Of a DNA stretch of 64,000 nt, positions 12,777-55,418 are shown piece by piece (within the stretch, counting starts at the first letter, position 1; every line of letters begins with the position of its first letter). The DNA comes from Candidatus Woesearchaeota archaeon (lineage in GTDB: Archaea > Nanobdellota > Nanobdellia > Woesearchaeales > BS150m-G63). Below the pieces are notes generated by a model. It saw only the letters and a list, made by a program, of their open reading frames with translations. It ran no database searches and had not been told where the DNA came from. Both the position numbers and the translations under genes were made by a program. The stretch spans positions 6,867 to 70,866 of the forward strand of contig JADHVD010000003.1 in assembly GCA_016784165.1 (NCBI GenBank). Reading direction: 5' to 3'.

Positions 12777-12787
12777 CTTAACCCAAT

Positions 12788-12841
12788 TAACCCCCCTAAC
12801 CCCCCTAACTAACGTAACCAACTTAACTAACGTAACCAACT
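12788..12841. repeat. Intergenic tandem repeats in which every unit begins with TAAC: TAACCCCCC x2, then TAACTAACGTAACCAACT x2
   Basis: Read directly: 9-bp units at 12788-12796 and 12797-12805, and 18-bp units at 12806-12823 and 12824-12841. Confidence 0.9.
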
Positions 12842-12903
12842 TAATTAATTAATGTTAATCAATATCAGAAAACTATTTAAACAAACCAAAGAACATTAAA
12901 ATA

Positions 12904-13320: not shown

Positions 13321-13321
13321 A

Positions 13322-35317: not shown

Positions 35318-35321
35318 TGTT

Positions 35322-35726
35322 TCAATATTTTTTTAAAATCTTTTTTATTTTTTCAATAGTGAGATTAGTATAGGGTTTCCCATCCATTAACATTGCTGGA
35401 GCTTCATCACAACAGCCAATACAAGAAGTTTTATACAAAGAAAATTTTTTATTTTTAGTAGTTTTTCCTACTTCAATTTTTAATTCTTTTTCCAGAAAAT
35501 CTTCTATTTTTTGGCCATTATTAAGCATACAACTTGGGCTTCCACAAATTTCAATAATATGCTCTCCCTGTTTTTCTATTTTAAACATAGCATAAAAAGT
35601 GGCAACACCATATAATTTAGCTAAAGGAACATTATATTTTACACTAATATTCTTCATAGCTTTTTCAGAAATATAACCATCATTATCTTGGACCTCTTTT
35701 AAAACATTAATTAATATTTTATCCAT
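35322..35726 (-). CDS. hydC: NuoE-like thioredoxin-fold [2Fe-2S] subunit (HydC)
   Basis: The Cys pattern is ICGSPSCMLNNG ... TSCIGCCDEAPAM. Confidence 0.8.
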   Translation of the reverse strand: MDKILINVLKEVQDNDGYISEKAMKNISVKYNVPLAKLYGVATFYAMFKIEKQGEHIIEICGSPSCMLNNGQKIEDFLEKELKIEVGKTTKNKKFSLYKTSCIGCCDEAPAMLMDGKPYTNLTIEKIKKILKKY

Positions 35727-36428: not shown

Positions 36429-39855
<3,427 letters not shown>

Positions 39856-39878
39856 TCTTACCAACAATATGAAATAAC

Positions 39879-41054
39879 ATGATTAGATTCTTAACAAAAG
39901 CCAAACTAAAAGATAAGAGGGTTCTTCTTAGGTTAGACCTTAATGTACCCTTGGATAAAAAAGGAAATATAACTGACGACACCAGAATAAAAAAATCTAT
40001 CCCAACAATAAAATATATTCTTTCAAAAAAACCAACACAACTCATAATTATGTCCCACTTAGGTAGGCCAAAAGCAAAAATAATTCCAAAATTAAAACTC
40101 ATAAATGTCGCAAGAAGATTACAAAAATTATTAAAACAGAATATCATTAAAACAAGAGATTGCATAAACATAAAAATCCCAAATTCAAAAATAGTGTTAC
40201 TTGAAAATTTAAGATTTCATAAACAAGAAAAAGAAAACAATAGGGCATTCGCAAAAAAATTAACAGATTACGCAGACATCTACATAAACGACGCATTTGG
40301 AACTGCACACAGAAAACATGCGTCAAATAACGCAATAACTAAATTCCTTCCAAGTTACGCAGGATTCTTAATCAAACAAGAATTAGAAAAATTAAACTTA
40401 AAAAAACCAAAAAAACCATTTATTGCAATTCTCGGTTGTGCAAAAATATCGGATAAAATAGATTTAATTAAAGCGTTACTCAATAAAGTTGATAAACTAT
40501 TAATTGGTGGACTCATATCTTTCACATTTTTAAAAGCAGAAGGATACGAAGTTGGACTTACAAGAGTAGAAACATCAAAAATAAGAACAGCAAAAGCACT
40601 ATTAAAAAAATACAAAAAAAAGATAATTCTCCCCCTTGATGTAAAAGTAGCATTAAATCCAAATGCAAAACCTCAAACAACTCACATAGATAAAATTCAA
40701 AAAAATAAAATTGGTTATGATATAGGGCCAGATTCAGTAAAACTATTTCTCGAAGAACTAAAAAAATCAAAAACAGTTTTTTGGAATGGGCCATTAGGAT
40801 TTTACGAAAATAAAAAATACAAAAACTCAACAAATCAAATAGCAAAATTATTATCAAAAAACACTAAGAAAATAAAAACAATAATTGGTGGGGGAGATAC
40901 AGCAAACGCAGTAAGGCTACTTGAAAAAGAATTTTATCATGTTAGTACAGGCGGAGGCGCATCATTAGAATTTATTTCAGGAAAAGAACTTCCAGCAATA
41001 AAAGCTTTAGAAATTAATGCAAAAAAATTTAAATTTAAAATAATAACAGATTAA
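39879..41054 (+). CDS. pgk: Phosphoglycerate kinase
   Basis: The motifs are LLRLDLNVPL, SHLGRPK, AFGTAHR and IIGGGDTANAV. Confidence 0.9.
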   Translation: MIRFLTKAKLKDKRVLLRLDLNVPLDKKGNITDDTRIKKSIPTIKYILSKKPTQLIIMSHLGRPKAKIIPKLKLINVARRLQKLLKQNIIKTRDCINIKIPNSKIVLLENLRFHKQEKENNRAFAKKLTDYADIYINDAFGTAHRKHASNNAITKFLPSYAGFLIKQELEKLNLKKPKKPFIAILGCAKISDKIDLIKALLNKVDKLLIGGLISFTFLKAEGYEVGLTRVETSKIRTAKALLKKYKKKIILPLDVKVALNPNAKPQTTHIDKIQKNKIGYDIGPDSVKLFLEELKKSKTVFWNGPLGFYENKKYKNSTNQIAKLLSKNTKKIKTIIGGGDTANAVRLLEKEFYHVSTGGGASLEFISGKELPAIKALEINAKKFKFKIITD

Positions 41055-41079
41055 CTGAGGATAATGGTTTTTCTTTCTT

Positions 41080-43824
41080 TCACTCTGCAAGATTACTCAA
41101 CACTTCACCTAATTTATCAAAATTATTTCCTATTCCAGACCAATCTTGTTGATTCATAGAATCAAGAATCAATCCATAATAATTATTTGCGTCTTCAATC
41201 AATTCTTCTTGAGATTTATCCTCTAAAATACTTGCCTCTTCTCCTTCAACAACTTCTTGTGCACCCCTCAAATTTGTACTTGTCGAAGTTCCAAATAATG
41301 CAATCAAAGCAGAACCAATATCTTTTTCCATAACAACTCTTTCACCATCAGACATTAACACTCTCTTCAATTCAGGAAGTTGTCCAGTCTCTGCTTGAAT
41401 GTACAATGGTTCAACATAAAGGATACTATCTTCAATAGGAATCACAAGAAGATTCCCCCTTGTAATTCTTGAACCTTGTTGAGACCACAAAGTCAATTGT
41501 TGTGAAATTTCAGAATCTTGGTCAAATTTCGCCTCTATTTGAGAAGGACCATAAATTAATTTATCTTTTGGAAATTTATATAAAATTAATTTTCCATAAT
41601 CATCAAAATCAGAACGCGCAGCCATCCAAGCAACCATATTATCTTTTCTTATAGGTGTAAAAGGAGTCATCAATACAAATTCTTCTTTTTCCTCTCCTGG
41701 AAGTTTCATAATCATATAATAAGGCTCCATCATTATCTGTTGTCCTACACCATAAATTTCTTTGGGAATCTGCCAAGCATCTTCTTTATTATAAAATACA
41801 GGAACATCATCCATGTGATAAGTGCTGTATATCTTAGATTGGACACTAAAGAGGTCTGTAGGATATCTGATATGTTTTTTAAGTCCTTCAGGCATACTAT
41901 CTATTGATTTAAATTGTTTAGGAAATATCTTAGTATAAGTAATAATCAAAGGATCATTTACATCAGAAACATAATAATTAACATCCCCATCATATGCACT
42001 AACAACAATCTTTACAGAATTTCTAATATAATTAATAGGCCCGCTCTTTTCAGAATAAGGAAAATTGTTAGATACAGTGTATGCATCTTGAATCCAAAAT
42101 AATTTTTCATCATTCACAACTAAATAAGGGTCTCTATCTAGTTTTAAAAAAGGAGTAATTTTAGATATCCTTTGTTGTATATTTCTTGTAAACATTATTT
42201 TACTTTCATCATTAATATCAGAAGATAATAGAATCTTAATATCTCCAAACCTTAGGGCCATTAAAACTTTTTTAAAGAAAGAATCAAGCTTAACGCCACC
42301 GACACCATCATAATTAATATACTTATTTTTATTTCCTTTTGGATAATCAAATTCATCTGTTTTTGTATTTACTAATACAAAATCATTATCTTTTTCCCCA
42401 TAATAAATTCTTGGTTGAGAAATTTTTAAGCTACTATCATTCACAGAATAAACAGGGGGGATATCCTTTATGAAAAAATTAGGCAAACCCTCTGAAGTTA
42501 CTGAATTTACAGGGCTCATAACAACGCCAAAACCATGAGAATAAACCATGTGTAGATTTACCCAAGTTTTTGCATCTTGTGTAATTTGAGCTTGTTCTAA
42601 TTCTCTTGGAGCTATCATAACTTGAGTATATTTTCCATCAATAGTATATCTATCAATATCAATTCCAGAAAGATCATAGTATAATCTTATTTCTTGCGTT
42701 TGTTTATATGTTTGAATCAAAGGTCGCCAATCTAATATTCTTATATTGTCAATAGTTCCAGTAGCTTCAGAAATAACTTGGGAATCTAAATTCATCTCGA
42801 CAGAAAAATCTTTTTCTTCAACATCAGATAAACCATATGCAATTCTTGTGAATTTTATATTATTTTCAATATATGGTTTTTCTAAATTAATTTCATTTGG
42901 TTCAACCTTTAATGATTGAACAAGCCCAGGAATAAAAACAGAACCAACAAATGCGAATAAGAAATATATAATTAACCCATACATTAAGATGTGCCTTTTT
43001 TTGAGTTTGGGATTTTTTGAAAAATAAAACACCCAAACAATAAATAATGCAGCAATAACAATCGCAAGAATCATTAATAGTTTAACAATAGGAAGATAAG
43101 CAACTACATCTGTGTATCCAGCCCCAACAACAATTCCAGCTTCAGAATACATAATTGAAAACCTTGAAAGATAATGTCTAACTGCAAGCAGTATAAACAA
43201 TAATGAGCCAAGAACACTTAAATGAATCATTGAGTTTTTTTTAAACCCATCAAAAATTTTCTTAACACTCATAGAATTTCCACTCACTTGACCTGTATGA
43301 ATATCTGTAATACCAAAATCAAATTTAATAGATTGTAGATAATGTAATATAACTAAAAATATAGTGATTACAACACTAATAATAATAAATTTCCACACAA
43401 TTAAAAATAAAGGCAAGGAGAAAACATAAAACCCAACATCCCTCAAAAAGATAGGGTCTTTTAAATTAAAAGGAAATTGGTTAATATATTGTAACACCAC
43501 AAGCCAATTTGAAGAAACACTAACACCCATTATAAAAGAGATAATTAATAGAATCATTGATTTAACTTTAAAAGACATAAACCCTTTTATCTTGTTTAAT
43601 TTTGAAGCAACCCACAAATTCAAACTCGAAAAAGAAATGAAAGTTAAAGCACCAATAAGAAACAAGATAATTTTTGATTTAAATATTGTTAAAAAAATCT
43701 GAGAAAAACCCAACGCATCAAACCAGAGATAATCAGTAAAAAATTTCGCTAACCCAGATACTGAAAAAAGAAATATAACTATCAAAAAAAGAAGAGTAGA
43801 TTGTAAAATATTTTTATTAGCCAA
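41080..43824 (-). CDS. UPF0182-family large membrane protein
   Basis: The 914-aa protein has an N-terminal block of about 7 TM helices starting FFTDYLWFDALGFSQIF and a large soluble C-terminal region. The family assignment is from memory. Confidence 0.65.
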   Translation of the reverse strand: MANKNILQSTLLFLIVIFLFSVSGLAKFFTDYLWFDALGFSQIFLTIFKSKIILFLIGALTFISFSSLNLWVASKLNKIKGFMSFKVKSMILLIISFIMGVSVSSNWLVVLQYINQFPFNLKDPIFLRDVGFYVFSLPLFLIVWKFIIISVVITIFLVILHYLQSIKFDFGITDIHTGQVSGNSMSVKKIFDGFKKNSMIHLSVLGSLLFILLAVRHYLSRFSIMYSEAGIVVGAGYTDVVAYLPIVKLLMILAIVIAALFIVWVFYFSKNPKLKKRHILMYGLIIYFLFAFVGSVFIPGLVQSLKVEPNEINLEKPYIENNIKFTRIAYGLSDVEEKDFSVEMNLDSQVISEATGTIDNIRILDWRPLIQTYKQTQEIRLYYDLSGIDIDRYTIDGKYTQVMIAPRELEQAQITQDAKTWVNLHMVYSHGFGVVMSPVNSVTSEGLPNFFIKDIPPVYSVNDSSLKISQPRIYYGEKDNDFVLVNTKTDEFDYPKGNKNKYINYDGVGGVKLDSFFKKVLMALRFGDIKILLSSDINDESKIMFTRNIQQRISKITPFLKLDRDPYLVVNDEKLFWIQDAYTVSNNFPYSEKSGPINYIRNSVKIVVSAYDGDVNYYVSDVNDPLIITYTKIFPKQFKSIDSMPEGLKKHIRYPTDLFSVQSKIYSTYHMDDVPVFYNKEDAWQIPKEIYGVGQQIMMEPYYMIMKLPGEEKEEFVLMTPFTPIRKDNMVAWMAARSDFDDYGKLILYKFPKDKLIYGPSQIEAKFDQDSEISQQLTLWSQQGSRITRGNLLVIPIEDSILYVEPLYIQAETGQLPELKRVLMSDGERVVMEKDIGSALIALFGTSTSTNLRGAQEVVEGEEASILEDKSQEELIEDANNYYGLILDSMNQQDWSGIGNNFDKLGEVLSNLAE

Positions 43825-43899
43825 TTTATTTATCCCCTAATCGTAATTATTTCTTGTTCTTTTTAAACTTTGCTGAAAAAAAGGAATTTAAATAGAATA

Positions 43900-45150
43900 T
43901 TAAGAAATAACTATAGTTTTCCCAATCTTATCTTTCACTTCTTTCTCAAGTTTTTTCTTTAACACACCAACATTAAGTTCTTCTAATTCTTTTGACCATT
44001 CATTAATTTCACATTTCTTAGAATTAATTTTATTTTCTATAATATCAATTTCTTCTTTTAACTTTTCAATATCTACCATAATAGTTGATTCCTCAAACTT
44101 AACTTTTAGTTGATCTAGTTCCCATTCAATCTTGTTGTACTTCTCTAAAAATTCTTTAAAATAATCAACATTCAACTTACCTAATTCATGTAATATTTTC
44201 TCTTTTTTCTTGTCTTTTAATTCAACATCACCATTAGAAATAGAATTTTCCATCTTATTTAAAACATCAACAATTTTTAATTCAGTATCTTTCAATAAAG
44301 CCATCAACGAATTAGCCAGATATTTTTTAACAACACCTTTTTCTAAAGTCACCCTCTCATATTTTTTTAAGCCAGCTTCAATAACTGAAAAAGAATGCCA
44401 TAACATCATTTCCAATTCTTTCTTTTCATTCTCCAAACTTTCTTTTTTACTTACTAAATCATTAAACAACCCATATTCATCACTCTTTTTCACTTGTTCC
44501 AACTTTTCTTTTTTATCAACAAATTTTTTGTTCACTTCTTTCAAATCTTTTTTAGTTGAACTTATGTTCTCCTCTAGATCTTTTTTAGAATTTATTTTTT
44601 CTAAAATACCCATCACTTTTTGTTTTAATCTCTCGAGTTCATCAATTTCAGCATTTTTCAAAATAGACTTAGCTTCTTTAACAAATTTATCTGTATCTCT
44701 TATATTTTCAGCAACACCAAATGATTTATCTCCAAAAAATTCCTGCAATACTTGATACGCTTTCAAAGTAGATTTGCTAAAATTATTAATAACATCCTCA
44801 AAACCATCACAAAATTTAATAATATCTTTAAATTCTTTAGGAATTCTAACTTCATCCATCAACAACCCAACTTTTTGAATATATGTATCTCTATTACCAT
44901 TAATTATTTGGATAATTCTTTCAGGAACATTTTTATTTCTAAGTTTAGCATTTTTTAATTCTTCAAGATTTCCTTTTACCTTCTTTTTTTCAACCTTAAT
45001 TTTTTCCCTTACATTATTCAACTTAATCTCAATTTTTTCAATATTTTTTTCAAATTGAGAATTTATCCAACCACTAATTTCATCTAGCTCAAGCTCAATA
45101 ATCTCTTCTTCTTTCTTAGAAAACTTTTTTAAAAAGTCAAAAATCCCCAT
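43900..45150 (-). CDS. Large coiled-coil protein of unknown function
   Basis: The 416 aa are Lys/Glu/Leu-rich with heptad patterns throughout. Confidence 0.5.
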   Translation of the reverse strand: MGIFDFLKKFSKKEEEIIELELDEISGWINSQFEKNIEKIEIKLNNVREKIKVEKKKVKGNLEELKNAKLRNKNVPERIIQIINGNRDTYIQKVGLLMDEVRIPKEFKDIIKFCDGFEDVINNFSKSTLKAYQVLQEFFGDKSFGVAENIRDTDKFVKEAKSILKNAEIDELERLKQKVMGILEKINSKKDLEENISSTKKDLKEVNKKFVDKKEKLEQVKKSDEYGLFNDLVSKKESLENEKKELEMMLWHSFSVIEAGLKKYERVTLEKGVVKKYLANSLMALLKDTELKIVDVLNKMENSISNGDVELKDKKKEKILHELGKLNVDYFKEFLEKYNKIEWELDQLKVKFEESTIMVDIEKLKEEIDIIENKINSKKCEINEWSKELEELNVGVLKKKLEKEVKDKIGKTIVIS

Positions 45151-45222
45151 ATTCCAATAAAATAACTCTTAGTTTATATTTTTTTGCAAAATATTATAAA
45201 TCATTTTTCTATATCTTAAATT

Positions 45223-45561
45223 ATGGTAAGAAAACACAAGAAAAAACCAGCATCACATAGAAAAATAGTGTTAGAAAGAATCCAAATCCTATTTGAGCAA
45301 GCTCAAGAGAATTTCTCGTTAGATCCTAAACTTTCAGATCGTTATGTTCAGCTTGCAAGAAAATTAACAATGAAATATAAAGTGAAGATGCCTTCAGAAT
45401 ATAAAAGACAATACTGCAAATATTGTTACAGCTACTTAATGCCAAACAAAACATGCAGGATAAGAACTCATAAGGGTCATTTAGTGTACTATTGTCTTAA
45501 ATGTAAAAAGTTCAATAGATTTACTTATAAAACCGGAAAGTCTACGACTAAAAAAGAATAA
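45223..45561 (+). CDS. rnp4: RNase P protein component 4 (Rpp21/Rpr2 family)
   Basis: A helical N-terminus (RIQILFEQAQENF, RYVQLARKLTMKY) is followed by the zinc ribbon CKYCYSYL...YYCLKCKKF. Confidence 0.8.
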   Translation: MVRKHKKKPASHRKIVLERIQILFEQAQENFSLDPKLSDRYVQLARKLTMKYKVKMPSEYKRQYCKYCYSYLMPNKTCRIRTHKGHLVYYCLKCKKFNRFTYKTGKSTTKKE

Positions 45562-45712
45562 ATTTAAATATCACTAATAACTTCTAAATTTTTGTGAATT
45601 ACTATGAGAGTTACAACAATTAACAATTGCCAACCATATTAGGCGATACTCTCTTGATTTTTAATTTTTTATTTCTTTCTAAATCTTCAGAGAACCTAAA
45701 TGAAAACCTAAA

Positions 45713-46915
45713 ATGTCCACTAAAAAAATAACAAAGGAACGAGAAAAAAAACTTAAACAGAACATCTGGAAGTTTTACATATATAGATTCTTCTCTAGTA
45801 TGATCTTTGTAATTCCCATATTTGTATTATTCTTACAAGATAATGGACTTAGCATGACTCAAGTAATGATTTTACAAGCAGTTTATACTGCAGTAATCAT
45901 GCTAGCAGTAATACCCTCAGGGATATTTGCAGATTATATGGGGAGAAAGACAGCATTAGTGATAAATTCTATATTTTTCACTTTGGGTTGGACTCTTTAT
46001 GCATTGAGTTACTCCTTTTTTGCATTCTTGATAACTGAGATAGTTATGGCTATATCTGCTGCTTTGTGGAACTCTTCAGGAACAGCATTCTTTTACGACA
46101 CATTAAAAGAATTAAAACAAGAAAGCAAGTTTAAACGCCTTTATGGGAATACAATGACTATCAGCCACATAGTGTGGGGATTATCTGCATTAATAGGAGG
46201 GTACTTAGCAACATATAGTTTAAGACTTCCTTATTTTGCAGTAATACCTCCAGTGTTTTTATCAATTTTAGTAACATTAAGTTTTACAGAAACCAAGAAA
46301 TATAAACACGGAGATAAGCATTACATCACCCACCTAAAAGATGCAGCAAAATTTAGCATAACCCACCCAAAAGTGAAATTTTTCATAATCTATGCAGCGC
46401 TATTTGGGGCAGTATTTTTCAACGCATTCATGGTTTATCAGCCATATCTAAAACAGATACAGGTACCATTAATTTATTTTGGAGTGATATTCATGTTCAT
46501 GGATTTCACAGCTGCATTTGCATCAAAAATAGCTCATAAGGTAGAAGAATTTTTTGGAGAAAAAAAAATACTCCTAATAATGTTAGCTTTAGCCATATTT
46601 GCTTATGCAGGTATGAGTTTTAGCATACTTTATTTTGGAGCAGCATTCCTATTGATAACCTCTTTCGTTGGAGGGTTAAAATACCCAATTATAATGGATT
46701 ATATTAACAAGCATGTAAGTTCTCATCACAGAGCAACAGTTATGGCTTTTTCAGACTTATCTGGGAGCATGCTCTGTACATTGTCAGCCCCCTTTATAGG
46801 CTGGCTAATTGATTTTTGGGGATTGAGAGAAGCATTTTTGTTTTTTGTAGTGTTATTAGTACTAAACTTAGTCATACTATTATGGGTGTTCCACTTAAAT
46901 AATAATAGAAAATAG
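45713..46915 (+). CDS. MFS-type transporter
   Basis: It has about 12 TM helices and the loop motif ADYMGRKTAL between TM2 and TM3. Confidence 0.7.
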   Translation: MSTKKITKEREKKLKQNIWKFYIYRFFSSMIFVIPIFVLFLQDNGLSMTQVMILQAVYTAVIMLAVIPSGIFADYMGRKTALVINSIFFTLGWTLYALSYSFFAFLITEIVMAISAALWNSSGTAFFYDTLKELKQESKFKRLYGNTMTISHIVWGLSALIGGYLATYSLRLPYFAVIPPVFLSILVTLSFTETKKYKHGDKHYITHLKDAAKFSITHPKVKFFIIYAALFGAVFFNAFMVYQPYLKQIQVPLIYFGVIFMFMDFTAAFASKIAHKVEEFFGEKKILLIMLALAIFAYAGMSFSILYFGAAFLLITSFVGGLKYPIIMDYINKHVSSHHRATVMAFSDLSGSMLCTLSAPFIGWLIDFWGLREAFLFFVVLLVLNLVILLWVFHLNNNRK

Positions 46916-46938
46916 ATTAAGAAATAAATCAGAAAACT

Positions 46939-47082
46939 CTATTCACCAAGAACACCTTTACAATTGATACAGACTTCTTTATCTGTTTTTTTATCATATT
47001 TAGTGGTGATTCCCCACTGTAGAATATTATTACAGCTAGGGCATTTATCTTCATTCAAAATCTCAAACAAATTGAAAACCAT
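46939..47082 (-). CDS. Small (47 aa) zinc-ribbon ORF, below the track cut-off
   Basis: My own translation is MVFNLFEILNEDKCPSCNNILQWGITTKYDKKTDKEVCINCKGVLGE. Confidence 0.35.
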   Translation of the reverse strand: MVFNLFEILNEDKCPSCNNILQWGITTKYDKKTDKEVCINCKGVLGE

Positions 47083-47154
47083 TTTTTAATTAGTTTTTAT
47101 TAGAATATATCATCTAAAGGCAATTAACTATATAAAATTTACCTTAATAATGCT

Positions 47155-47204
47155 GATTAAATTGATATTTTGGATAAAATAGTTTTTAGTTATCCTACAC
47201 AGCA
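47155..47204. repeat. Left copy of the 50-bp direct repeat flanking the GGDEF cassette
   Basis: The sequence is GATTAAATTGATATTTTGGATAAAATAGTTTTTAGTTATCCTACACAGCA, 49/50 identical to 48863-48912. It contains the internal inverted repeat GGATAA...TTATCC. Confidence 0.95.
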
Positions 47205-47255
47205 ATTTTTAGTATATGGTAGAATAAACTTTTTTTTAATAAAATTTTATAAAAA

Positions 47256-48524
47256 TTATGAATTATAAATTCTTAATTGATTTCTTCCATTTGTTTTTGC
47301 TTTATATAGTGCTTCATCTGCTCTTTTTATGAAAATATCTGTTAGAAGATTCATTTTTAAGTCTTCATCATTTAATATATCTGTTAAATTTTTATTTATT
47401 TCTTTAGAATAAATTTCTGCTTGGTCTTTTATTGATTCTAATCCATATAAAATTTGCCCATTTTTTAATCCTGTAAATTTGGAATAAATTTCTAATAAAG
47501 GAATTATTTTTAATTTATTTTTAACATATTTATTTATTAATACTTGTCCTGATTTTCCTTTTAAAATTCTTATTTCTGGAACTTCAAAACTTGAAACAAC
47601 ACCTATGCTAGTGTTTATATTAACTTTTTCTTCTTTACCCGTATGTATATTTTTAAAATAAAAATTTGTTTTTGATAAGTTTATCCTATATTGATCTAAT
47701 TTATTAATTATTCCTTTATAAAATTTTGATGAATTGTCAAAGTTTGCAAAAGAAATAAGAAATTCTTCCCCTCCAAATCTACCATGCAAGTCCCGACTTC
47801 TAAAACTATTTTTACTTAATTCTGTTGTTTTTCTTAATACTTCATCTCCATTCAAGTGTCCATAATTGTCATTTATTCTTTTGAAGTGATCCAAATCATA
47901 CATTGTAAGAACTATTTCAGGAGTATTAGTTGCACGAAAATTTAATAAAGTTTCTAATTCATTTTTCAGTTTTTCTTTGAATGTTTTCTTCCTAAATAAT
48001 CCTGTTAATTCATCTATTCCTAAAAAATTATCATGATATTGGATTAATTTTCCAAAAGCAGGAATTATTTCTTCAATTTTTATTTTATCCACTTCAGTAA
48101 ATCCATTTTTTTTATTTAATAATTGTATCGCCCCAATTATATCTCCATTTGCTTTTATCGGGATTGTTAACATATTTTTTGTTTTATAACCAGTTTGGCT
48201 ATCAAATAATCCTAAATGATAGGGGTTTTTTTTAACTTCATTGCACAAATCAGTTTTTCCTTCTGTTATTACTTTTCCAACTATTCCTTGATTAATAGAT
48301 AATCTTTTTCCAACTAAACCCTCTTCCCCACCAATAACATCCTTAAAAATTAATTCATTACCTTCTTTTATAAATAAAGAAGCAGCATCTGCACCAGTCA
48401 TATCTTTACATTTTAAATTCATATATTTAATCAAATTCCTAATATCTGTATCAAGATAATCAAATAATTCCATTAATGTGGTTTTGGTATGATTTTCTAA
48501 ATTTAATTTATCCTCTATATTCAT
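47256..48524 (-). CDS. GAF-domain plus GGDEF-domain protein (predicted diguanylate cyclase) with a large insertion in the GGDEF domain
   Basis: The motifs are DELTGLFRKKTF, MYDLDHFKRINDNYGHLNGDEVL, the I-site RSRD, the active site RFGGEEF (47760-47774), TSIGVV and RADEALYKAKTNGRNQ. A TATA-like CTTTAAATAG lies about 26 nt upstream of the ATG. Confidence 0.85.
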   Translation of the reverse strand: MNIEDKLNLENHTKTTLMELFDYLDTDIRNLIKYMNLKCKDMTGADAASLFIKEGNELIFKDVIGGEEGLVGKRLSINQGIVGKVITEGKTDLCNEVKKNPYHLGLFDSQTGYKTKNMLTIPIKANGDIIGAIQLLNKKNGFTEVDKIKIEEIIPAFGKLIQYHDNFLGIDELTGLFRKKTFKEKLKNELETLLNFRATNTPEIVLTMYDLDHFKRINDNYGHLNGDEVLRKTTELSKNSFRSRDLHGRFGGEEFLISFANFDNSSKFYKGIINKLDQYRINLSKTNFYFKNIHTGKEEKVNINTSIGVVSSFEVPEIRILKGKSGQVLINKYVKNKLKIIPLLEIYSKFTGLKNGQILYGLESIKDQAEIYSKEINKNLTDILNDEDLKMNLLTDIFIKRADEALYKAKTNGRNQLRIYNS

Positions 48525-48862
48525 GTCGTTTCAGGATAAAATCACCCTATTTAAAGATTGTTGTTTTTTAAGTATTAAACATGCCGTATCTGGATTTGGC
48601 CCAATGCGTTCTCAAGTTAGAATTATGACAGGACTTGGCGGTTATGAACCTTGGAGAGACGAGTATGATTGTGGGCCTAGATGGAATATCAAAGGGTATA
48701 ATTCTTCAACAAAACGTTGATTTGGTGAGAAGTGTAAAATGCATAATAATAAAAATTGTCTTAAAGGGGCAAAACACAAGTTCATTAACAATAAAAGAAT
48801 AGTGAAATACGCAAGAAATTATATGATTGCTTGGACAAAGCTATTAAAGATATTGAATATTA

Positions 48863-48912
48863 GATTAAATTAATATTTTGGATAAAATAGTTTTTAGTTA
48901 TCCTACACAGCA
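48863..48912. repeat. Right copy of the 50-bp direct repeat flanking the GGDEF cassette
   Basis: The sequence is GATTAAATTAATATTTTGGATAAAATAGTTTTTAGTTATCCTACACAGCA. Confidence 0.95.
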
Positions 48913-49097
48913 CTTAATAAGGATATTTAATAGAAAAATACCCTTATTTAATTTAAATGATTAAAAAAATAAAAAATAAAAGTGAAAGGATCTGGCGGAC
49001 ATAAATCAAATCCTTCTTTTAGTTCATAAGCCAAATACTACATTAGAGAATATTTGCACCCGATAGTTTTTTATACCTCTTTTATTTTTCTTATCTT

Positions 49098-49346
49098 ATG
49101 AATTATGACCTCGAACTAGAAAAAGTGATAACTAAAATAAAAAAAGAAAAAGCTAAATTGGTGTGTATTCAACTTCCAGATGGATTAAAACCAAACGCAA
49201 AAGAGATAACAGACCTAATTCATAAAAAAACAAATGCACAAGCAGTGCTTTGGGCAGGATCATGTTTTGGAGCATGTGATACTCCAAATATAAAACATCT
49301 TGACTTTGACATGTTAATTCAGTTTGGTCACAGCGAATGGAGATAA
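49098..49346 (+). pseudogene. dph2: Truncated N-terminal fragment (82 aa) of the diphthamide synthesis radical-SAM enzyme Dph2
   Basis: The fragment AKLVCIQLPDGLKPNAKEI...CFGACDTPNIKHLDFDMLIQFGHS follows the N-terminal pattern of archaeal Dph2. It then stops, whereas the full-length enzyme is more than 300 aa from memory. Confidence 0.65.
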
Positions 49347-49364
49347 TCCAAAAACAAAAACCAT

Positions 49365-50030
49365 ATGAAAAACTCAATAAAAAAAGAGATATCAAAAAGA
49401 TTCAACTCATCTAAAAAAAGAATCAAATACGAATTTCATAAATGGAAAAATCAATTAATTATTGCAGATAAAGCGCTTTATATCATCATAGTTCTTTTAC
49501 TCGGATTACTTCGTCCAGATATTGTAATGATTGTTGTGTATTTTTCATTATATCCTTATCTTTTTTTAACCAAACGAAAAAAAGCAATCAACCACCTTTT
49601 AATCGCTTCCCTAGTGTCATTAGTATGGATGCTAATTGCAAATTCGCAATATGGATATAATCAAGAGATGTTATTAATTTTTGGTTTAAACTCTTATCCC
49701 CTTTTTACTTGGGCAGTAGGATTATTTGCAGCATACTTAATTTATTCTCACTGGGAATACCTCATAAAAAAACACAGTTTAATCAAAAAAATGATTCTTT
49801 TTGTGATTTTTTATTGGTTTTTATTAATTACAGTTGAAACAACAGCATACTACGGATTTGACATAAAAAATTTAGTAACAGCAAATTATGCCGGATTACC
49901 TTTTTGTAATTGTATTCATGCACCGATATGGATGCAGATTTCTTATCTTATGTTGGGTCCAATTTACTTTGGTATTTGTGAACTATTAGGTTTAGAAAAT
50001 CCACATTACACAAAAAAGAATCAAAAATAA
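49365..50030 (+). CDS. Membrane protein of unknown function
   Basis: The 221 aa contain about 6 hydrophobic helices. Confidence 0.5.
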   Translation: MKNSIKKEISKRFNSSKKRIKYEFHKWKNQLIIADKALYIIIVLLLGLLRPDIVMIVVYFSLYPYLFLTKRKKAINHLLIASLVSLVWMLIANSQYGYNQEMLLIFGLNSYPLFTWAVGLFAAYLIYSHWEYLIKKHSLIKKMILFVIFYWFLLITVETTAYYGFDIKNLVTANYAGLPFCNCIHAPIWMQISYLMLGPIYFGICELLGLENPHYTKKNQK

Positions 50031-50085
50031 ATAAAACACCACATTCCCAAAACTTTTATATATTTCAACTAATTAATTCTAAAAC

Positions 50086-50571
50086 ATGTGGAATTATATT
50101 TTAGCACCAATAATAGCTTTTCTTGGATTTCCTATAGGGATTTTTTTCTCTTTCACAAATCCAGAAGAGATGAAACCAGGAAAAAAATACTTCCATCTAC
50201 TCCAAAATATACTCCTAACATTAATCATTTTCTTAGTGCTTGAATTTTATCAACTACCTTTAGTTTTCTCTATAATTATTACAGCAGTAATTTTTATTTT
50301 ATTATTCTACTGGAAAAACAAACACAAGAGCATAATAACTTATTTTACACTTGCAATCTTATTAGCACTATCATCTAAAAACCCTCACCTATTTGCAATA
50401 CAAACATCCTTAATAGCTTTATATGGACTTCCAACAGGTTCTTTAGAATCACCTAAAAAAGGAAAACAACAACAAAGAAAAAAAGAAGCCCTTAAAATAA
50501 TAGCAAAACATTTAGGATTTATAGCTCTTTCAATAATACTTCTGTTATTTTTTACTATTTTAAAATTTTAA
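50086..50571 (+). CDS. Membrane protein of unknown function
   Basis: The 161 aa contain about 5 hydrophobic helices. Confidence 0.5.
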   Translation: MWNYILAPIIAFLGFPIGIFFSFTNPEEMKPGKKYFHLLQNILLTLIIFLVLEFYQLPLVFSIIITAVIFILLFYWKNKHKSIITYFTLAILLALSSKNPHLFAIQTSLIALYGLPTGSLESPKKGKQQQRKKEALKIIAKHLGFIALSIILLLFFTILKF

Positions 50572-50993
50572 ATAGAAAAAACTAATATAGCAATAATCAC
50601 ACCAAGAATTGCTCCAACAATTACTTCTATGAGTTTATGACCTGTAACTTCTTTCAATTTATTTTTAACAAACTTATTTTTAGCAAATTTATTAATTACT
50701 TTAGAATTCTCACCTATCTGCCACCTAGCACCAAAAGCATCTCTCATAATCACAAGTGAAAACACAGCACTCACAACAAATAAAGCAGAAACTCCCTGTT
50801 CTAAAAACACTCCAGCACTTAAAGCACTAACAAAACTAGAATGAGAACTGGGCATATGGCCCATTAAGAAAAAAGACTTAACATCAAATTTTCTCTTTTT
50901 TACACAAACCAAAATTCCTTTGAGCAATTGGACAAAAAACCAACCAAAAACACAACTCAACACGATTTTGTTTTGTATTAGTTCTAAAAACAT
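50568..50993 (-). CDS. Divergent PAP2-like membrane phosphatase family protein (DUF212 type)
   Basis: The motifs are HMPSSHSSFVSALSAGV, MRDAFGARWQIGE and GHKLIEVIVGAILG. Confidence 0.7.
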   Translation of the reverse strand: MFLELIQNKIVLSCVFGWFFVQLLKGILVCVKKRKFDVKSFFLMGHMPSSHSSFVSALSAGVFLEQGVSALFVVSAVFSLVIMRDAFGARWQIGENSKVINKFAKNKFVKNKLKEVTGHKLIEVIVGAILGVIIAILVFSI

Positions 50994-51084
50994 GAACTCT
51001 AAAAAATATTAGCAATATATAAATCTTTTCTAAACACCAATTTAAACCCAAACTTTTTTATTAACTAAACATAATCACATTAGT

Positions 51085-52572
51085 ATGAACTACACAATTA
51101 TTGATTGTTACACTGATGAACCTTCAGGATTGGGGGTCCCACCATATTTGGGAACATTTCCAAGATATATTTATGGTGCATTGACAGATGTGGGCAATAA
51201 CCCTATTTACTTGACAATAGATGATATTAGATTATGGAAAAAATATAATTCAATACCTTCAGATAAATCAAAAGAGATAAAAACAAATAAAAAAATATAT
51301 AACCTTACAAAAAACTATGAAAATGTTGAAGAAATTCTAAAAAAAACAACACACCTCATAATTATAGCAGGAATTAATGTTCCTGGAAAATACTTGAGCG
51401 CAGTTCCAGGTAGGTTATCGGAGGTTACAGATTACATAAAAGATCTTAGATGTTATAAAATTCTTACAGGACCAGCAGCGCTTTTAGGTTCAATTCAAGA
51501 AGGTGGGAAAAAACCAGAAAAATACAACACAAAATCATTCGATCTAATCGATTTTAATTACCTTAATACCAATTACTATGATGAAATAAAAGCACAACAA
51601 GGCGCACAACTCATCCAACAAATTCCTTGGCCAGTTATAGCAGAAATAGAGACTGGAAAGGGGTGCGATATTGGAAAATGTTCTTTTTGTACAGAACCAC
51701 TAAAGAGCAAGGTTCAGTTTAGACTTCCAAGAGATATCATTGAGGAATTAAAAGCACTCAAAAAACAAGGAGTAGAACATTTTAGGTTTGGCAAACAGAC
51801 TTGCTTTTTCTCATATCAAAATGGAAACTTAGAGGAGATTGAAAAAATCTTAAAGGCCGCACATGAACTTGGGCCAAAAACCCTTCATATAGATAATGTA
51901 AATCCAAATAAAATAGTCGGAAAAGATGGGGAAAAAATAGTAAAACTCATAGTAAAATACTGCACACCAGGAAACACCACAGCCTTAGGAATAGAATCTT
52001 TTGATAAAGAAGTTATAAAAAAGAACAGTCTTAACACTACTCCCCAGATAGCTTACAAAGCAATAAAACTCATAAATAAACTGGGCGTAAAAAGGGGTAA
52101 AAATGGAATGCCTAAACTACTTCCAGGAATAAATATTCTTTTTGGATTAATTGGGGAAAATAAAAATACTCATCAAGAGAACATGAAATGGCTAAATAAA
52201 ATTTTAGATGAAAATTTACTATTAAGAAGAATAAATATTCGCCAAGTAACTCCCTTTGAGGGCACAAAATTAGATGATTTAGCCGGAACAAAATTTATCA
52301 AAAAGAATAAAAAACATTATTGGAGTTGGAGAAAACAGATAAGAAGGGAGATTGATTATCCTATGCTGAAAAAATTAGTGCCCGAAGGAACAATACTCAA
52401 AGATGTGAGGATGGAGATATATGATGGAAAAACAACATTCGGAAGGCAATTTGGTACTTACCCCCTTGTTATAGGTATAAAAGGAAAAAGACTTAAACTA
52501 AACGAATTTTATGAGGTAAAAGTGGTGGATTATATGCTTAGAAGCATAATTGGGGAGGTAATCCAAAAATGA
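51085..52572 (+). CDS. Radical-SAM-like Fe-S enzyme with a C-terminal TRAM-like domain
   Basis: The Cys cluster is GKGCDIGKCSFCTEP and the C-terminal segment is FYEVKVVDYMLRSIIGEV. The family recall (COG1031-like) is uncertain. Confidence 0.55.
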   Translation: MNYTIIDCYTDEPSGLGVPPYLGTFPRYIYGALTDVGNNPIYLTIDDIRLWKKYNSIPSDKSKEIKTNKKIYNLTKNYENVEEILKKTTHLIIIAGINVPGKYLSAVPGRLSEVTDYIKDLRCYKILTGPAALLGSIQEGGKKPEKYNTKSFDLIDFNYLNTNYYDEIKAQQGAQLIQQIPWPVIAEIETGKGCDIGKCSFCTEPLKSKVQFRLPRDIIEELKALKKQGVEHFRFGKQTCFFSYQNGNLEEIEKILKAAHELGPKTLHIDNVNPNKIVGKDGEKIVKLIVKYCTPGNTTALGIESFDKEVIKKNSLNTTPQIAYKAIKLINKLGVKRGKNGMPKLLPGINILFGLIGENKNTHQENMKWLNKILDENLLLRRINIRQVTPFEGTKLDDLAGTKFIKKNKKHYWSWRKQIRREIDYPMLKKLVPEGTILKDVRMEIYDGKTTFGRQFGTYPLVIGIKGKRLKLNEFYEVKVVDYMLRSIIGEVIQK

Positions 52573-52910
52573 TAGAAAAAACACTAAATCAAAAGATAGA
52601 ATTAAAAGAAAAGAATCTAAAATTAGAAACAGAATTAGGAAATGCTGCATATTTTATAAAAAAAGGTTCAGCAAACACCGTAATGGAAGATATAACTTTA
52701 AAAAACAAAAATTCCAACACTTTAAATTATGTATTGCAACAGCTAGAGAAAGAATGTTATAAACAAGGAGCACACGAACTTGTTTTAGATATGGATTTAA
52801 ATAATGAGTTTTTTGGGTTATTTCAAGATGTCATTAAATGGAGGAATTATAGCCATATACCTGGAATACCTTTGACAACCACAATAACATATTATAAAAA
52901 TATTGGATAA
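52569..52910 (+). CDS. Hypothetical protein, translationally coupled to the radical-SAM gene
   Basis: It overlaps the upstream gene by 4 nt (ATGA). No motif is recognised. Confidence 0.45.
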   Translation: MIEKTLNQKIELKEKNLKLETELGNAAYFIKKGSANTVMEDITLKNKNSNTLNYVLQQLEKECYKQGAHELVLDMDLNNEFFGLFQDVIKWRNYSHIPGIPLTTTITYYKNIG

Positions 52911-53016
52911 CAACGAAAGTTATTTAAATAAAACTTTAGTTTTTTATCCACATTATACTAAAAATTTCTTTTTAGTATATATTAAAGATTTTTTTGTTTT
53001 ATTTGAATCTTTTTAT

Positions 53017-53088
<72 letters not shown>

Positions 53089-53096
53089 CTTTTTTT

Positions 53097-53170
53097 GGGC
53101 CCGTAGCTTAGCCTGGTAGAGTGCTCGACTGATAATCGAGTGGTCCCGAGTTCAAATCTCGGCGGGCCCA
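53097..53170 (+). tRNA. tRNA-Ile (anticodon GAU); no encoded CCA
   Basis: The acceptor stem is GGGCCCG/CGGGCCC, the anticodon stem CTCGA/TCGAG with loop CTGATAA, and the T arm CCGAG-TTCAAAT-CTCGG. Confidence 0.9.
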
Positions 53171-53310
53171 CTTTCATAATTAACTCACATAAATATTAAT
53201 TAAAGAGATAAATCAAAGGAATTACAAAGTGATTAAATCAACAGAGTTGATTTACCTCGCTTCTGGGGGGCTACGACCCAAAACGTAGGTTCCAAATCTC
53301 GGCGGGCCCA
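53171..53310 (+). mobile_element. tRNA-Ile-linked mini-unit 1 (140 bp): a 48-bp conserved left end, a hairpin, a small stem-loop, then a 31-bp right end copying the tRNA-Ile 3-prime end
   Basis: The left end at 53171-53218 is identical to 53311-53358. The hairpin TAAATCAAC-AGA-GTTGATTTA is at 53234-53254. The right end AAAACGTAGGTTCCAAATCTCGGCGGGCCCA is at 53280-53310. Confidence 0.5.
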
Positions 53311-53461
53311 CTTTCATAATTAACTCACATAAATATTAATTAAAGAGATAAATCAAAGAGATAATTATGGGATGAGATATAACAAACGAAGTGAGTTATT
53401 ATCTCATACTAATTTCCGGAGCTACTACGGAAAACGTAGGTTCCAAATCTCGGCGGGCCCA
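53311..53461 (+). mobile_element. tRNA-Ile-linked mini-unit 2 (151 bp) with the same architecture and a different central hairpin
   Basis: The left end is at 53311-53358. The central hairpin is ATGAGATATAAC...GTTATTATCTCAT. The right end at 53431-53461 is identical to 53280-53310. Confidence 0.5.
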
Positions 53462-53496
53462 TATTTCCACTCAACCACCAAATTAATTTTTATAAA

Positions 53497-53826
53497 ATGA
53501 ATTACGAAATAGATAAACAAAATTATAGAATCCTAATTTCAGGTTCTACAAAAGAAATTAAAAAATGCATAATTTCTTTAGATCAGATAATCACTAAAGG
53601 TAATTGTTTACCTCAACTAGAAGAAGATTTAAAGAATTTACACAAAATTTACGAACCAACACAATTTAATTTTAACCGAATCGAAAGAATATATTACACA
53701 AAAAATTCATTACTTTTTGTGCCAAATGTTTCTGCAAAAGAATTTTATTTTCCAATTCTTGAAAAACATTTCGAACAAGCAAAAAAATACCTCACAAAAC
53801 AATCTTCACTGGACATTTTCACATAA
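53497..53826 (+). CDS. Hypothetical protein
   Basis: This is a 109-aa ORF with no recognised motif and no Walker A. Confidence 0.4.
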   Translation: MNYEIDKQNYRILISGSTKEIKKCIISLDQIITKGNCLPQLEEDLKNLHKIYEPTQFNFNRIERIYYTKNSLLFVPNVSAKEFYFPILEKHFEQAKKYLTKQSSLDIFT

Positions 53827-53858: not shown

Positions 53859-55418
53859 ATGGCTTCAGCTAGTGAAAATAATACAGAAGCAGCTATTACT
53901 CTAGCGCTCGAAACAATAAATATACAAAAACAGGCAATAGTTTTTGCAAATACCAGACTTTCTGCAGAAAAAACAGCAGAAGAGATGGCTAAAAAAATAA
54001 AACAATCAGACCAAGAAAATTTAGCAGAATTAGAATATGAAGTTCTTCACGCCCTAAGCACCTCGACAAAACAATGCAAAAGACTAGCTTTCTGTATAAA
54101 AAAAGGAATCGCGTTCCATCACGCAGGGTTAGCACCAGCCCAAAGAAGTTTAATAGAAGATTCATTCAGAAAAGGAGATATTAAAGTGATTTGTTGTACG
54201 CCGACTTTGGCATATGGTCTTGACCTTCCAGCATTTAGAGTAGTCATAAGAGACCTTAAAAGGTTCACTTACAGAGGTATGCAATATATCCCAGTTCTAG
54301 AATATCTCCAAATGAGTGGAAGGGCAGGCCGTCCAAAATATGATAATTATGGAGAATCCATAGCAATTGCAAACACAGAAAAAATAAGAGATGAAATTAG
54401 GAAAACATACATCAAAGGAAAACCAGAAACAATTTATTCTAAATTAGCTGCAGAACCAGTACTTAGAACTTATATTCTTTCATTAATAGCATCAGAATTT
54501 GTTGGAACAAAAGACCAATTATTTAATTTTTTCAGCAAAACTTTTTGGGCCCATCACTACCAAGATATGTGGCAACTTCAGAAGATAATAGATAAAATGA
54601 TGGACCTCTTAGAAGAATGGGAATTCATAAAAACAGATAAGAAAGATTTTATGTCTGCCGACGAAGATTATAAAATAAACACAACAAAACTCGGAAAAAG
54701 AGTGGCCGAACTCTATATAGACCCTTTAACAGCAAACTTTTTCATAACTTGTTTGAGAAACGCAAGCTCAAAAAAACCAGAAGATTTTTCTTATTTCCAA
54801 ATGATAAGTAATACATTAGAACTTAGACCTTTGTTAAGAGTAAAACGAAAAGATGTTGATTTTGTAGAATCAGTTTTACTAAGACACGAAGATGCCCTTT
54901 TAGAAGACACAGATGTTTATGAATCAGAATATAATGATGAATATAGCACTTTCATGGCCTCAATAAAAACCGCCCTATTTTTTAAAGATTGGGTAAATGA
55001 AAAAGATGAAGAGTTTCTCTTAGAAAAATTTGATATTAAGCCAGGAGAAATAGCTTCAAAATTAGAAAGAGGAAACTGGCTATTATACACAGCAACAGAG
55101 TTATCAAAACTTCTTGGTTTTAAAGGGCTAATCACAGATTTAATCAATCTGAGATTAAGATTGAAATATGGTGCAAAAGGAGAACTTCTTCCACTATTAA
55201 AATTCAAAAACATAGGAAGGGTTAGAGCAAGAAAACTATTCAATAATACTATCAAGGATGTTTCAGGAGTAAAAAAAGCAGATTTCATGAAACTATCTCA
55301 ACTTTTAGGCAATAACACAGCAGTAAATATAAAAAAACAAGTAGGACAAGATTTTACAAAATTAAAAGTCAAAAAAGGAAGAAGAAAAGGCCAAATGAGC
55401 TTAAAAAAGTACAGTTAA
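53859..55418 (+). CDS. Ski2/Hel308-type helicase C-terminal portion (RecA2, winged-helix, ratchet and HhH domains), lacking the RecA1 half
   Basis: It begins at motif IV (QAIVFANTRLSAEKTAEEMA). Motif V is TPTLAYGLDLPAF and motif VI is QMSGRAGRPKYD. No Walker A or DEAH motif occurs anywhere in the ORF. Confidence 0.7.
   Translation: MASASENNTEAAITLALETINIQKQAIVFANTRLSAEKTAEEMAKKIKQSDQENLAELEYEVLHALSTSTKQCKRLAFCIKKGIAFHHAGLAPAQRSLIEDSFRKGDIKVICCTPTLAYGLDLPAFRVVIRDLKRFTYRGMQYIPVLEYLQMSGRAGRPKYDNYGESIAIANTEKIRDEIRKTYIKGKPETIYSKLAAEPVLRTYILSLIASEFVGTKDQLFNFFSKTFWAHHYQDMWQLQKIIDKMMDLLEEWEFIKTDKKDFMSADEDYKINTTKLGKRVAELYIDPLTANFFITCLRNASSKKPEDFSYFQMISNTLELRPLLRVKRKDVDFVESVLLRHEDALLEDTDVYESEYNDEYSTFMASIKTALFFKDWVNEKDEEFLLEKFDIKPGEIASKLERGNWLLYTATELSKLLGFKGLITDLINLRLRLKYGAKGELLPLLKFKNIGRVRARKLFNNTIKDVSGVKKADFMKLSQLLGNNTAVNIKKQVGQDFTKLKVKKGRRKGQMSLKKYS

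Follow-up and report, generated by a model that had tools for sequence, protein, structure and literature searches.

A stretch of 64,000 nucleotides (nt) from a Candidatus Woesearchaeota archaeon (contig JADHVD010000003.1 of assembly GCA_016784165.1, positions 6,867 to 70,866), referred to here as the window, encodes a 422-residue protein that combines an N-terminal GAF domain with a C-terminal GGDEF domain. The explanation favored here, with a probability of about 60%, is that the gene was acquired horizontally, now resides in the chromosome of this member of the Woesearchaeota (DPANN), and encodes a sensor diguanylate cyclase, ligand-gated and producing cyclic di-GMP (c-di-GMP). The status of the locus as a rare, genuine archaeal GGDEF gene is well-supported. 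The gene lies within a 1912-nt segment, which is a lineage-specific insertion, and what is new in this analysis is that the insertion is bracketed by direct repeats of 53 nt and that the corresponding site is empty in a sister lineage.

Domain architecture and catalytic residues

The open reading frame (ORF) is present exactly as it had been given in a preliminary description of this DNA, and both the GGDEF and the GAF profiles score above their Pfam cutoffs. The GGDEF profile (PF00990) matches residues 170-312 over positions 3-132 of 161 (E=1.5e-26, 93.6 bits versus a cutoff of 23.8), and HMMER pairs the C-terminal helix (residues 398-417), as a separate second domain, with the C termini of diguanylate cyclases of known structure. 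The motifs quoted in the preliminary description can all be located at the level of the residue, that is, DELTGLFRKKTF at 171-182, DLDHFKRINDNYGHLNGDEVL at 210-230, TSIGVV at 305-310, and RADEALYKAKTNGRNQ at 401-416, as can the RSRD that it had placed five residues before GGEEF. The GG[D/E]EF sequence is the signature of the active site, and an intact I-site is defined by RxxD five residues upstream of GG[DE]EF (PMC2952852), which is the spacing observed here, where R242-S-R-D245 is followed by five residues and then by G251.

In an alignment of 67 sequences, the protein retains all 16 of the invariant columns and all 18 of those that are nearly invariant, including D210, D212, N218, D227, R242, D245, R249, the GGEEF motif, K410, and R414. 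Within the C-terminal helix, K410 is invariant, while A402, D403, Y407, G413, and R414 are nearly so. Five of these residues, D210, N218, D227, K410, and R414, presumably correspond to D327, N335, D344, K442, and R446 of PleD. The position of PleD D344 is occupied by Asp in the strict c-di-GMP synthases, and by Ser or Thr in the Hypr enzymes, which make cyclic GMP-AMP (cGAMP) (PMC9140294). This position bears on whether the product might be a different one, such as 3',3'-cGAMP, cyclic di-AMP (c-di-AMP), or a linear dinucleotide, as in a Hypr-like enzyme. Some GGDEF enzymes are promiscuous (PMC9140294), and the unique insertion described below, together with the archaeal setting, leaves room for a change in the chemistry, but D227, the residue for guanine selectivity, is the Asp of the strict synthases rather than the Hypr Ser/Thr (PMC9140294), and a different product is considered to be very improbable.

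The best sequence match in the PDB is 3ign, a diguanylate cyclase of Marinobacter (phmmer, E=3.8e-21), to which the block running from DLDHFK to GGEEF aligns without gaps. The solved chains recovered at E values of up to 1e-5 are mostly diguanylate cyclases, the remainder being GAF-domain proteins. The AlphaFold model used here is that of the run based on the 67-sequence alignment, which has a mean predicted local distance difference test score (pLDDT) of 85.4, with values above 90 in both domain cores and of 90-98 in the last helix, in comparison with a pLDDT of only 34 in a single-sequence run. In this model, a 24-residue helix (144-167) joins the GAF domain to the DxLT start of the GGDEF domain. 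In Foldseek, the top matches are solved diguanylate cyclases, including GAF-GGDEF proteins, and the template modelling (TM) scores against isolated GGDEF domains, normalized by the length of the target, are 0.8-0.87. The profile search and the structure prediction that the preliminary description had proposed as checks have both returned a GGDEF domain. Judged by its sequence, the protein has every feature that defines a GGDEF diguanylate cyclase. Nor is it unannotated, given that the diguanylate cyclase label is already in GenBank, where the entries MBC8444104.1 and MBL7050773.1, named 'sensor domain-containing diguanylate cyclase [Candidatus Woesearchaeota archaeon]', are the exact 422-residue protein.

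The GAF domain resembles the type that binds cyclic nucleotides, both in its fold and in its closest relatives. The nearest GAF domains of known structure, by sequence, are PDE2A GAF-B (1.1e-14) and CyaB2 (2.5e-14), followed by those of PDE10A, PDE5, PDE6, and Lcd1 (PDB phmmer), and the domain superposes on the cyclic AMP (cAMP)-bound GAF domain of Lcd1 (5w10) with a TM score of 0.78 and a root mean square deviation of 3.0 (Foldseek). An NKFDE-like motif can be recognized in N137, K138, F142, and D146, with the final E being replaced by K147. In an alignment with PDE2A, the positions that we take to face the ribose and phosphate, S49, D108, T111, and T115, look conserved, and those toward the base appear to differ. 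The ligand would probably be a nucleotide, and most likely a cyclic mononucleotide, since cAMP or cyclic GMP (cGMP) is bound by the closest solved GAF domains.

The preliminary description had also reported an insertion of approximately 75 residues in the GGDEF domain, at 47355-47591. The insertion stands, with slightly shifted limits (47334-47588). The interval between the SxGV strand and the LIxxAD helix has 85 residues in this protein and approximately 11 in its nine best relatives (10-sequence alignment), an excess of about 75, and none of the nine carries the insertion. The extra segment is likewise absent from all of the relatives in both the 10- and the 67-sequence alignments, which indicate that it is real and unique to this protein. 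It matches no Pfam family, and it is predicted to be helical, with a pLDDT of only 41-53 in the model from the 67-sequence alignment. When the segment was searched by phmmer, with filters off, against 1.84 billion representative proteins, it recovered only the protein that contains it and a 1662-residue repeat protein, P0126, whose 38-residue repeats have GQxIxxxLYGLxxxxDxAE in common with residues 37-61 of the segment. This short-motif match was judged too weak for P0126 to be accepted as the origin of the segment, and an internal duplication was also rejected, given that the segment neither repeats itself significantly nor resembles any other part of the protein.

In the mechanism proposed here, the protein would form a dimer through its GAF domains and the 24-residue linker helix, and a small ligand, most likely a cyclic mononucleotide, would reposition the two GGDEF domains on binding in the GAF pocket. 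Two molecules of GTP, held by D210/E253-Mg2+, N218, D227, K410, and R414, would then condense to c-di-GMP, which would feed back through the RSRD I-site (product inhibition). The extra helical segment would project from the surface loop that precedes the last helix, probably as a surface for interaction or oligomerization, leaving the chemistry unchanged. Catalytic competence appears somewhat probable, and is not rated more highly because the unique segment precedes the helix of K410 and R414.

The same segment is an argument for a domain that is catalytically dead or repurposed, in which the insertion would break the active half-site and the protein would act as a nucleotide receptor or a scaffold. 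The insertion stands immediately before the K410/R414 helix and is modelled with low confidence, and the wide-turn motif is atypical, with RKK in place of the usual NRR after DxLTGL. The only DPANN GGDEF domain in the literature, that of Ca. Micrarchaeum, is also an inactivated one (PMC5847659). In degenerate receptors, however, it is usual for the GG[DE]EF signature, or the residues that bind the metal and the substrate, to be lost, whereas all of these are kept here, the core of the fold is predicted with confidence up to and including the last helix, and the loop that bears the segment lies on the surface of the solved structures, as inferred from the Foldseek superpositions. A dead domain is therefore regarded as unlikely, by a clear distance from an even chance.

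The inserted segment and its archaeal setting

The preliminary description had placed the gene among archaeal genes, in an AT-rich context and behind an archaeal-style TATA box, and each of these points is upheld. The window contains genes for transcription (Rpb7/RpoE, Spt4, and an RpoL-like subunit) and for ribosomal proteins (eS24, eS27, eS6, P0 with the archaeal/eukaryotic insert, P1, and L1), as well as aIF2-gamma, the RNase P subunit Rpr2, the archaeal CCA-adding enzyme, PAC2, and an archaeal-type helicase, with Cbf5 being found just outside it. The guanine-cytosine (GC) content of the gene is 24.1% (12.3% at third codon positions, GC3), compared with 30.6% in the window. In synonymous codon usage, it ranks among the genes that best fit the other 57 of the window. 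The TATA box, TTTAAATA, occupies the position at which TTTAWATA is found in eight other window genes (-28 to -33), a motif that occurs only 34 times on the two strands of the 64 kb, and the promoter of the GAF-GGDEF gene is of the host type and probably leaderless. The layout itself, in which TTTAWATA starts 28-33 nt ahead of the start codon and comes after a stretch rich in purines, is found upstream of at least nine window genes (at 8438, 10729, 20635, 22915, 30455, 48555, 50055, and 51023, for example), which implies that the transcripts of this organism are mostly leaderless.

The segment that separates the window from its sister lineage contains both of the repeats, the gene with its promoter, and the spacer (Table 1). 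The sister lineage, which has been sampled in several metagenomes, has a major facilitator superfamily (MFS) transporter 93% identical to the one that neighbors the gene in the window, and 17 kb of it can be aligned colinearly with the window, with approximately 83% nucleotide identity. Its contig L102 corresponds to window 37692-47149 in its positions 1-9423, and to window 49062-53174 in its positions 9526-13658 (blastn), so that the empty site consists of 102 unrelated nucleotides in place of the 1912 nt of the window. In a more distant relative (L107/L108), whose MFS transporter is 60% identical, the MFS gene is followed directly by an 82-residue Dph2-like ORF, and the segment is absent. 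Given that both the sister and the distant relative lack the segment, parsimony favors a single insertion in the lineage of the window.

The 102 nt of the sister lineage (L102 9424-9525) include two palindromes capable of forming hairpins, TAGTAGGAG...CCTCTACTA and GAAGAAGAC...GTCTTCTTC, and a comparable hairpin is found in the window at approximately 49010-49040, just within the right edge of the unique segment.

The two copies of the repeat are identical at 51 of 53 positions and have an exact 39-mer in common, where none is expected in shuffled sequence. There are exactly two copies in the window. A weaker similarity (approximately 80%) continues from copy B to about 48970, matching 47208-47256.

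Table 1. Positions in the window of the gene, its domains and motifs, and the parts of the inserted segment.
Feature	Position	Strand	Details
GAF-GGDEF ORF	47256..48524	-	422 aa and stop codon; ORF list, Pfam, AlphaFold, Foldseek
GAF domain	48087..48404	-	Residues 41-146; GAF_2 31.5 bits (cutoff 28.6), GAF 28.7 bits (cutoff 22.4) (Pfam)
GGDEF domain, N-terminal and central part	47589..48017	-	Residues 170-312; holds D210, N218, D227, I-site, and A-site
I-site, R242-D245	47790-47801	-	RSRD, residues 242-245
A-site, GGEEF	47760-47774	-	Residues 251-255; invariant columns (67-sequence alignment)
Lineage-specific segment of the protein	47334..47588	-	Residues 313-397, after the SIGVV strand and ahead of the last helix
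GGDEF C-terminal helix and strand	47259..47333	-	Residues 398-422, with K410 and R414
TATA box, TTTAAATA	48548..48555	-	Starts 31 nt upstream of ATG; within the inserted segment
Lineage-only segment	47150..49061	.	1912 nt: both repeats, gene, promoter, and 338-nt spacer; blastn versus sister
Direct repeat, copy A	47155..47207	.	53 nt; 49-101 nt downstream of the stop codon
Direct repeat, copy B	48863..48915	.	53 nt; 339-391 nt upstream of ATG
Spacer	48525..48862	.	338 nt between copy B and ATG; 44% GC patch at 48600-48700

An alternative is an assembly chimera, in which a cassette from a bacterial contaminant or a small replicon had been threaded into the contig through the 39-53 nt of repeated sequence. 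The cassette does meet its flanks through the repeat, and the Logan unitigs (k=31) terminate inside it, given that the repeat is longer than k, which leaves the gene on a separate unitig of 1728 nt. Contamination has also been suspected by experts in the case of the archaeal c-di-GMP genes derived from metagenome-assembled genomes (MAGs) (bioRxiv 10.1101/2021.11.05.467447). However, the longest exact stretch of the repeat is 39 nt, the copies differ at both ends, and contigs from at least three assemblies and samples span both junctions identically. The 422-residue protein is found on seven contigs from several samples. The gene order recurs on a 78-kb contig with a coverage of 87 and on one of 11.4 kb from a different sample, which has 2 mismatches in 11,403 nt, and the arrangement is also shown by an NCBI MAG contig and by the Logan unitigs. 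In the same sample, the coverage of the cassette contig is 6.9, in comparison with 7.8 for other contigs of the genome, and a 1.7-kb circle with no replication gene is implausible as a replicon. Contamination or chimerism is very unlikely in view of the archaeal genes of the contig, the independent assemblies, the host-like codon usage, which is among the most host-like in the window, and the promoter layout, and this alternative can be regarded as almost negligible.

One further contig of 4443 nt (JACNHR010000035.1 / JACKQG010026140.1, L092/L095) is identical to the window across the whole of the GGDEF segment, but has 29 mismatches in its last 218 nt, which correspond to window 49487-49704, inside the gene of a 221-residue membrane protein. 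This divergence represents either a strain mosaic or a mixed-strain assembly.

A number of possible vehicles were considered for the insertion. Integron cassettes are accompanied by an adjacent IntI and by attC sites, which form stable imperfect hairpins with RYYYAAC / GTTRRRY ends. No integrase is found inside the insert, and a cassette of this kind was rejected in the absence of an IntI, given that the only tyrosine recombinase of the window is a 269-residue Xer-like protein located 22 kb away. The repeat is not attC-like either, as its folding is no stronger than that of shuffled sequence (z -0.65 to -1.0), and its only palindrome is the 6-bp GGATAA/TTATCC. Searches of the metagenome and viral collections with the core of the repeat returned the 4443-nt contig alone, with no viral match. 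An origin from a plasmid or a phage is also unsupported, with the blastn matches being limited to the conserved catalytic block of bacterial GGDEF genes. Among these, the Aliarcobacter plasmids NC_025123-NC_025126 (approximately 5 kb, non-mobilizable) carry GGDEF genes that match the gene in the catalytic block only, which shows that GGDEF genes can move on very small replicons. The spacer of 338 nt yielded no Rfam match, no signal of folding or structure, and no tblastn match, and there was no tblastn match for a 65-residue upstream ORF.

Relatives, partner genes, and the role of the gene in its host

Among 5.8 billion proteins, none lies between 100% and 36% identity to the GAF-GGDEF protein, whose best matches are other GAF-GGDEF proteins. 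One of these, P0002, is encoded on a bacterial-looking, AT-rich contig with chemotaxis genes. The best BLASTP match is P0003, a GAF-GGDEF protein of 585 residues (L003 9246-11003, contig JAIYRI010000066.1 of GCA_053531195.1), which is 41% identical over 78 residues of the GAF domain (E=9e-16) and 36% identical over 203 residues when the full length is considered. Its contig also encodes Hjc, OapB/OapC, EF-2, and TRM5/TYW2, and P0003 is taken to be archaeal on the basis of Hjc, OapB/OapC, and EF-2. It has an intact GGEEF motif, an I-site that is out of register (RGGYD), and no insertion. An archaeal clade of GAF-GGDEF proteins is nevertheless unsupported, as the best relatives of P0003 are bacterial (30-42% identity) and the protein of the window is not among its top 120 matches. 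P0003 looks like another isolated import. The collection of genome contigs provided no close relative, only bacterial matches at 26-49% identity, and the collection of viral contigs returned generic GGDEF matches only. At identities of 31-36%, the donor lineage cannot be named. The promoter inside the insert is already archaeal in its architecture, which suggests that the immediate source may have been archaeal DNA, or, alternatively, that the promoter may have evolved in place.

Partner genes were sought by Pfam in the ORFs of the window, by eye in the small intergenic ORFs, and among the genes called up to 10 kb beyond each end. As had been claimed in the preliminary description, the Pfam-scanned ORFs of the window include no EAL, HD-GYP, or PilZ gene, and a complete c-di-GMP module, with a phosphodiesterase and a receptor, is lacking from the window and its flanks. 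A role in defense was also rejected, given that neither the protein nor seven other nearby products (43900-53826) has a match in PADLOC, in a scan that left out the 82-residue ORF and the DUF212 gene; the only match is that of the more distant helicase at 53859-55418, with models of the HamB-type helicases.

Several observations weigh against a functional cyclase. No EAL, HD-GYP, PilZ, or nucleotide cyclase gene is found within approximately 80 kb (the window and its flanks), and no c-di-GMP riboswitch is detected in the window at the Rfam gathering thresholds, nor near the gene by either the gathering threshold or the E-value. All the known copies are identical in sequence, so that purifying selection in the host is not measurable. 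In the sensor, the assignment to the cyclic-nucleotide type is based on overall similarity, the NKFDE motif is incomplete (E to K), and the positions that we assume to contact the base in PDE2A appear to differ in this protein. The RKK of the wide turn, and the low-confidence segment of 85 residues directly ahead of the K410/R414 helix, which could impair catalysis, have been discussed above. Lastly, no archaeon has yet been found to contain c-di-GMP (PMC10249747).

The most substantial of the alternatives is that the gene is a neutral passenger, a recent horizontal insertion which may be catalytically competent but is partnerless in a reduced genome, contributes nothing to fitness, and is heading for decay. 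Neither the sister lineage nor any other source has an orthologue of this singleton, no partner genes lie within approximately 80 kb, and the archaeal P0003 is likewise an isolated singleton with bacterial relatives. Even so, the ORF of 1269 nt is still open in DNA of 24% GC, where stop codons arise easily, all of the catalytic residues are intact, the codons are host-like, the promoter is of the host type and at the right distance, and the gene persists in at least two strain backgrounds, across several samples. A neutral passenger is seen as unlikely, although it retains more weight than any other alternative. The favored cyclase may itself be a recently arrived passenger, not yet wired into a pathway.

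The preliminary description had gone further, in suggesting a novel second-messenger module, possibly directed at a host. Neither suggestion gained support from the analysis, which found an orphan gene in a lineage-specific insertion, with no relative above 36% identity and no genes for turnover or reception within approximately 80 kb. The gene is an orphan acquisition confined to a single species-level lineage, and is not evidence for an archaeal c-di-GMP pathway. It is unlikely that this DPANN archaeon uses c-di-GMP as a functioning second messenger, with the acquired cyclase and its lineage-specific helical insertion coupled to archaeal-type receptors and hydrolases that have gone unrecognized. 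If this were true, it would represent the first functional c-di-GMP pathway in the Archaea, and the cyclase might, for example, control attachment through the giant beta-helix surface proteins of the same contig. On this reading, the archaeal promoter in the insert, together with the archaeal best match, would point to a gene pool circulating among archaea.

Neighboring genes and comparison with known systems

The giant proteins in question, of 1382, 1198, and 1373 residues, are encoded in tandem at 238-8407 (-) and beyond the left end of the window (L099 18511-20432), and are preceded by a 143-residue helix-turn-helix protein with a match that resembles sigma-70 region 4. The first two carry beta-helix/NosD repeats and are possibly surface or attachment proteins. 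The helicase-like protein recovered by PADLOC (53859-55418, +) has 519 residues, with Helicase_C beginning at residue 68 and the usual N-terminal ATPase domain missing. It matches the HamB (Hachimoji) models over their C-terminal halves, and is found in the same 519-residue form in the sister lineage.

Closer to the insertion, an ORF of 47 residues (46939-47082, -), which encodes a CxxC...CxxC zinc ribbon, is located just outside the segment, and also has 47 residues in the sister lineage. The Dph2-like ORF is found in the window at 49098-49346 (+), in the sister lineage at L102 9562-9810, and in the distant relative at L107 1670-1918, and matches only the first 56 of the 302 positions of the diphthamide-synthase (Dph2) profile, which gives it the look of a fragment. 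It is nevertheless probably a real small gene, given that it has exactly 82 residues in all three.

Elsewhere in the window, a bacterial-type [FeFe]-hydrogenase cluster (32538-35726, -) encodes a large subunit with a small-subunit domain, a Nuo51-like flavoprotein, and a thioredoxin-like 2Fe-2S protein, and there are bacterial-type genes for GAPDH, PGK, a phosphoenolpyruvate-utilizing enzyme, DnaK, GrpE, and DnaJ. The genome holds many other genes that are likely to be bacterial imports.

Of the systems that have been characterized, Lcd1 of Leptospira interrogans has the same GAF-GGDEF architecture, and a GAF domain that matches the present one at E=9e-7. The sequence identity is only approximately 20%. 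Lcd1 is a cyclase activated by cAMP (PMC8846402), and the switch logic proposed here, in which a nucleotide in the GAF domain turns on the GGDEF domain, is shared with it (PMC8846402). In contrast, Lcd1 is bacterial, its GGDEF domain lacks an insertion, and it operates within an extensive network of c-di-GMP signalling. The best whole-length Foldseek match is Dcsbis/PA2771 of Pseudomonas aeruginosa (4zmu; E=1e-17, 405 aligned columns), which has the same domain order but is only 20% identical, lacks the 85-residue segment, and operates in a bacterial host with many phosphodiesterases and receptors. PleD and WspR (1w25, 3bre) have in common with the present protein the GGEEF motif, the RxxD at five residues, the Asp that binds the metal, the Asn and Asp that bind the substrate, and the C-terminal Lys and Arg (PMC2952852; PMC9140294), but have a receiver domain as the sensor, and no insertion.

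The machinery of c-di-GMP is described in reviews as essentially bacterial, and the GGDEF and HD-GYP genes of archaeal MAGs have been treated as possible contamination, awaiting confirmation on archaeal contigs (PMC5847659; bioRxiv 10.1101/2021.11.05.467447; PMC10086821). The near-absence of GGDEF domains from the archaea, which the preliminary description had asserted, agrees with the literature (PMC5847659; bioRxiv 10.1101/2021.11.05.467447; PMC10086821; PMC10249747), in which a search found no use of phrases such as 'archaeal diguanylate cyclase'. The only GGDEF gene of a finished archaeal genome is that of Methanocella arvoryzae (PMC5847659; PMC2952852), CAJ37382, which encodes a REC-PAS-PocR-GGDEF-HD-GYP protein, and that of Ca. 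Micrarchaeum encodes an inactivated REC-GGDEF (PMC5847659; bioRxiv 10.1101/2021.11.05.467447). Both are, like the present gene, encoded by archaea and read as imports from bacteria (PMC5847659; bioRxiv 10.1101/2021.11.05.467447). The gene described here differs from these earlier cases in its architecture, in being intact where that of Micrarchaeum is inactivated, and in that the insertion event is visible through the empty site.

The locus, which is partnerless, does not in itself establish the use of c-di-GMP by an archaeon, but it offers a concrete protein for functional study. It also provides, by unusually direct evidence, the confirmation that had been awaited, with informational genes of the archaeal kind sharing its long contig, several independent assemblies, host codons and a host promoter, and an empty site in the sister lineage.

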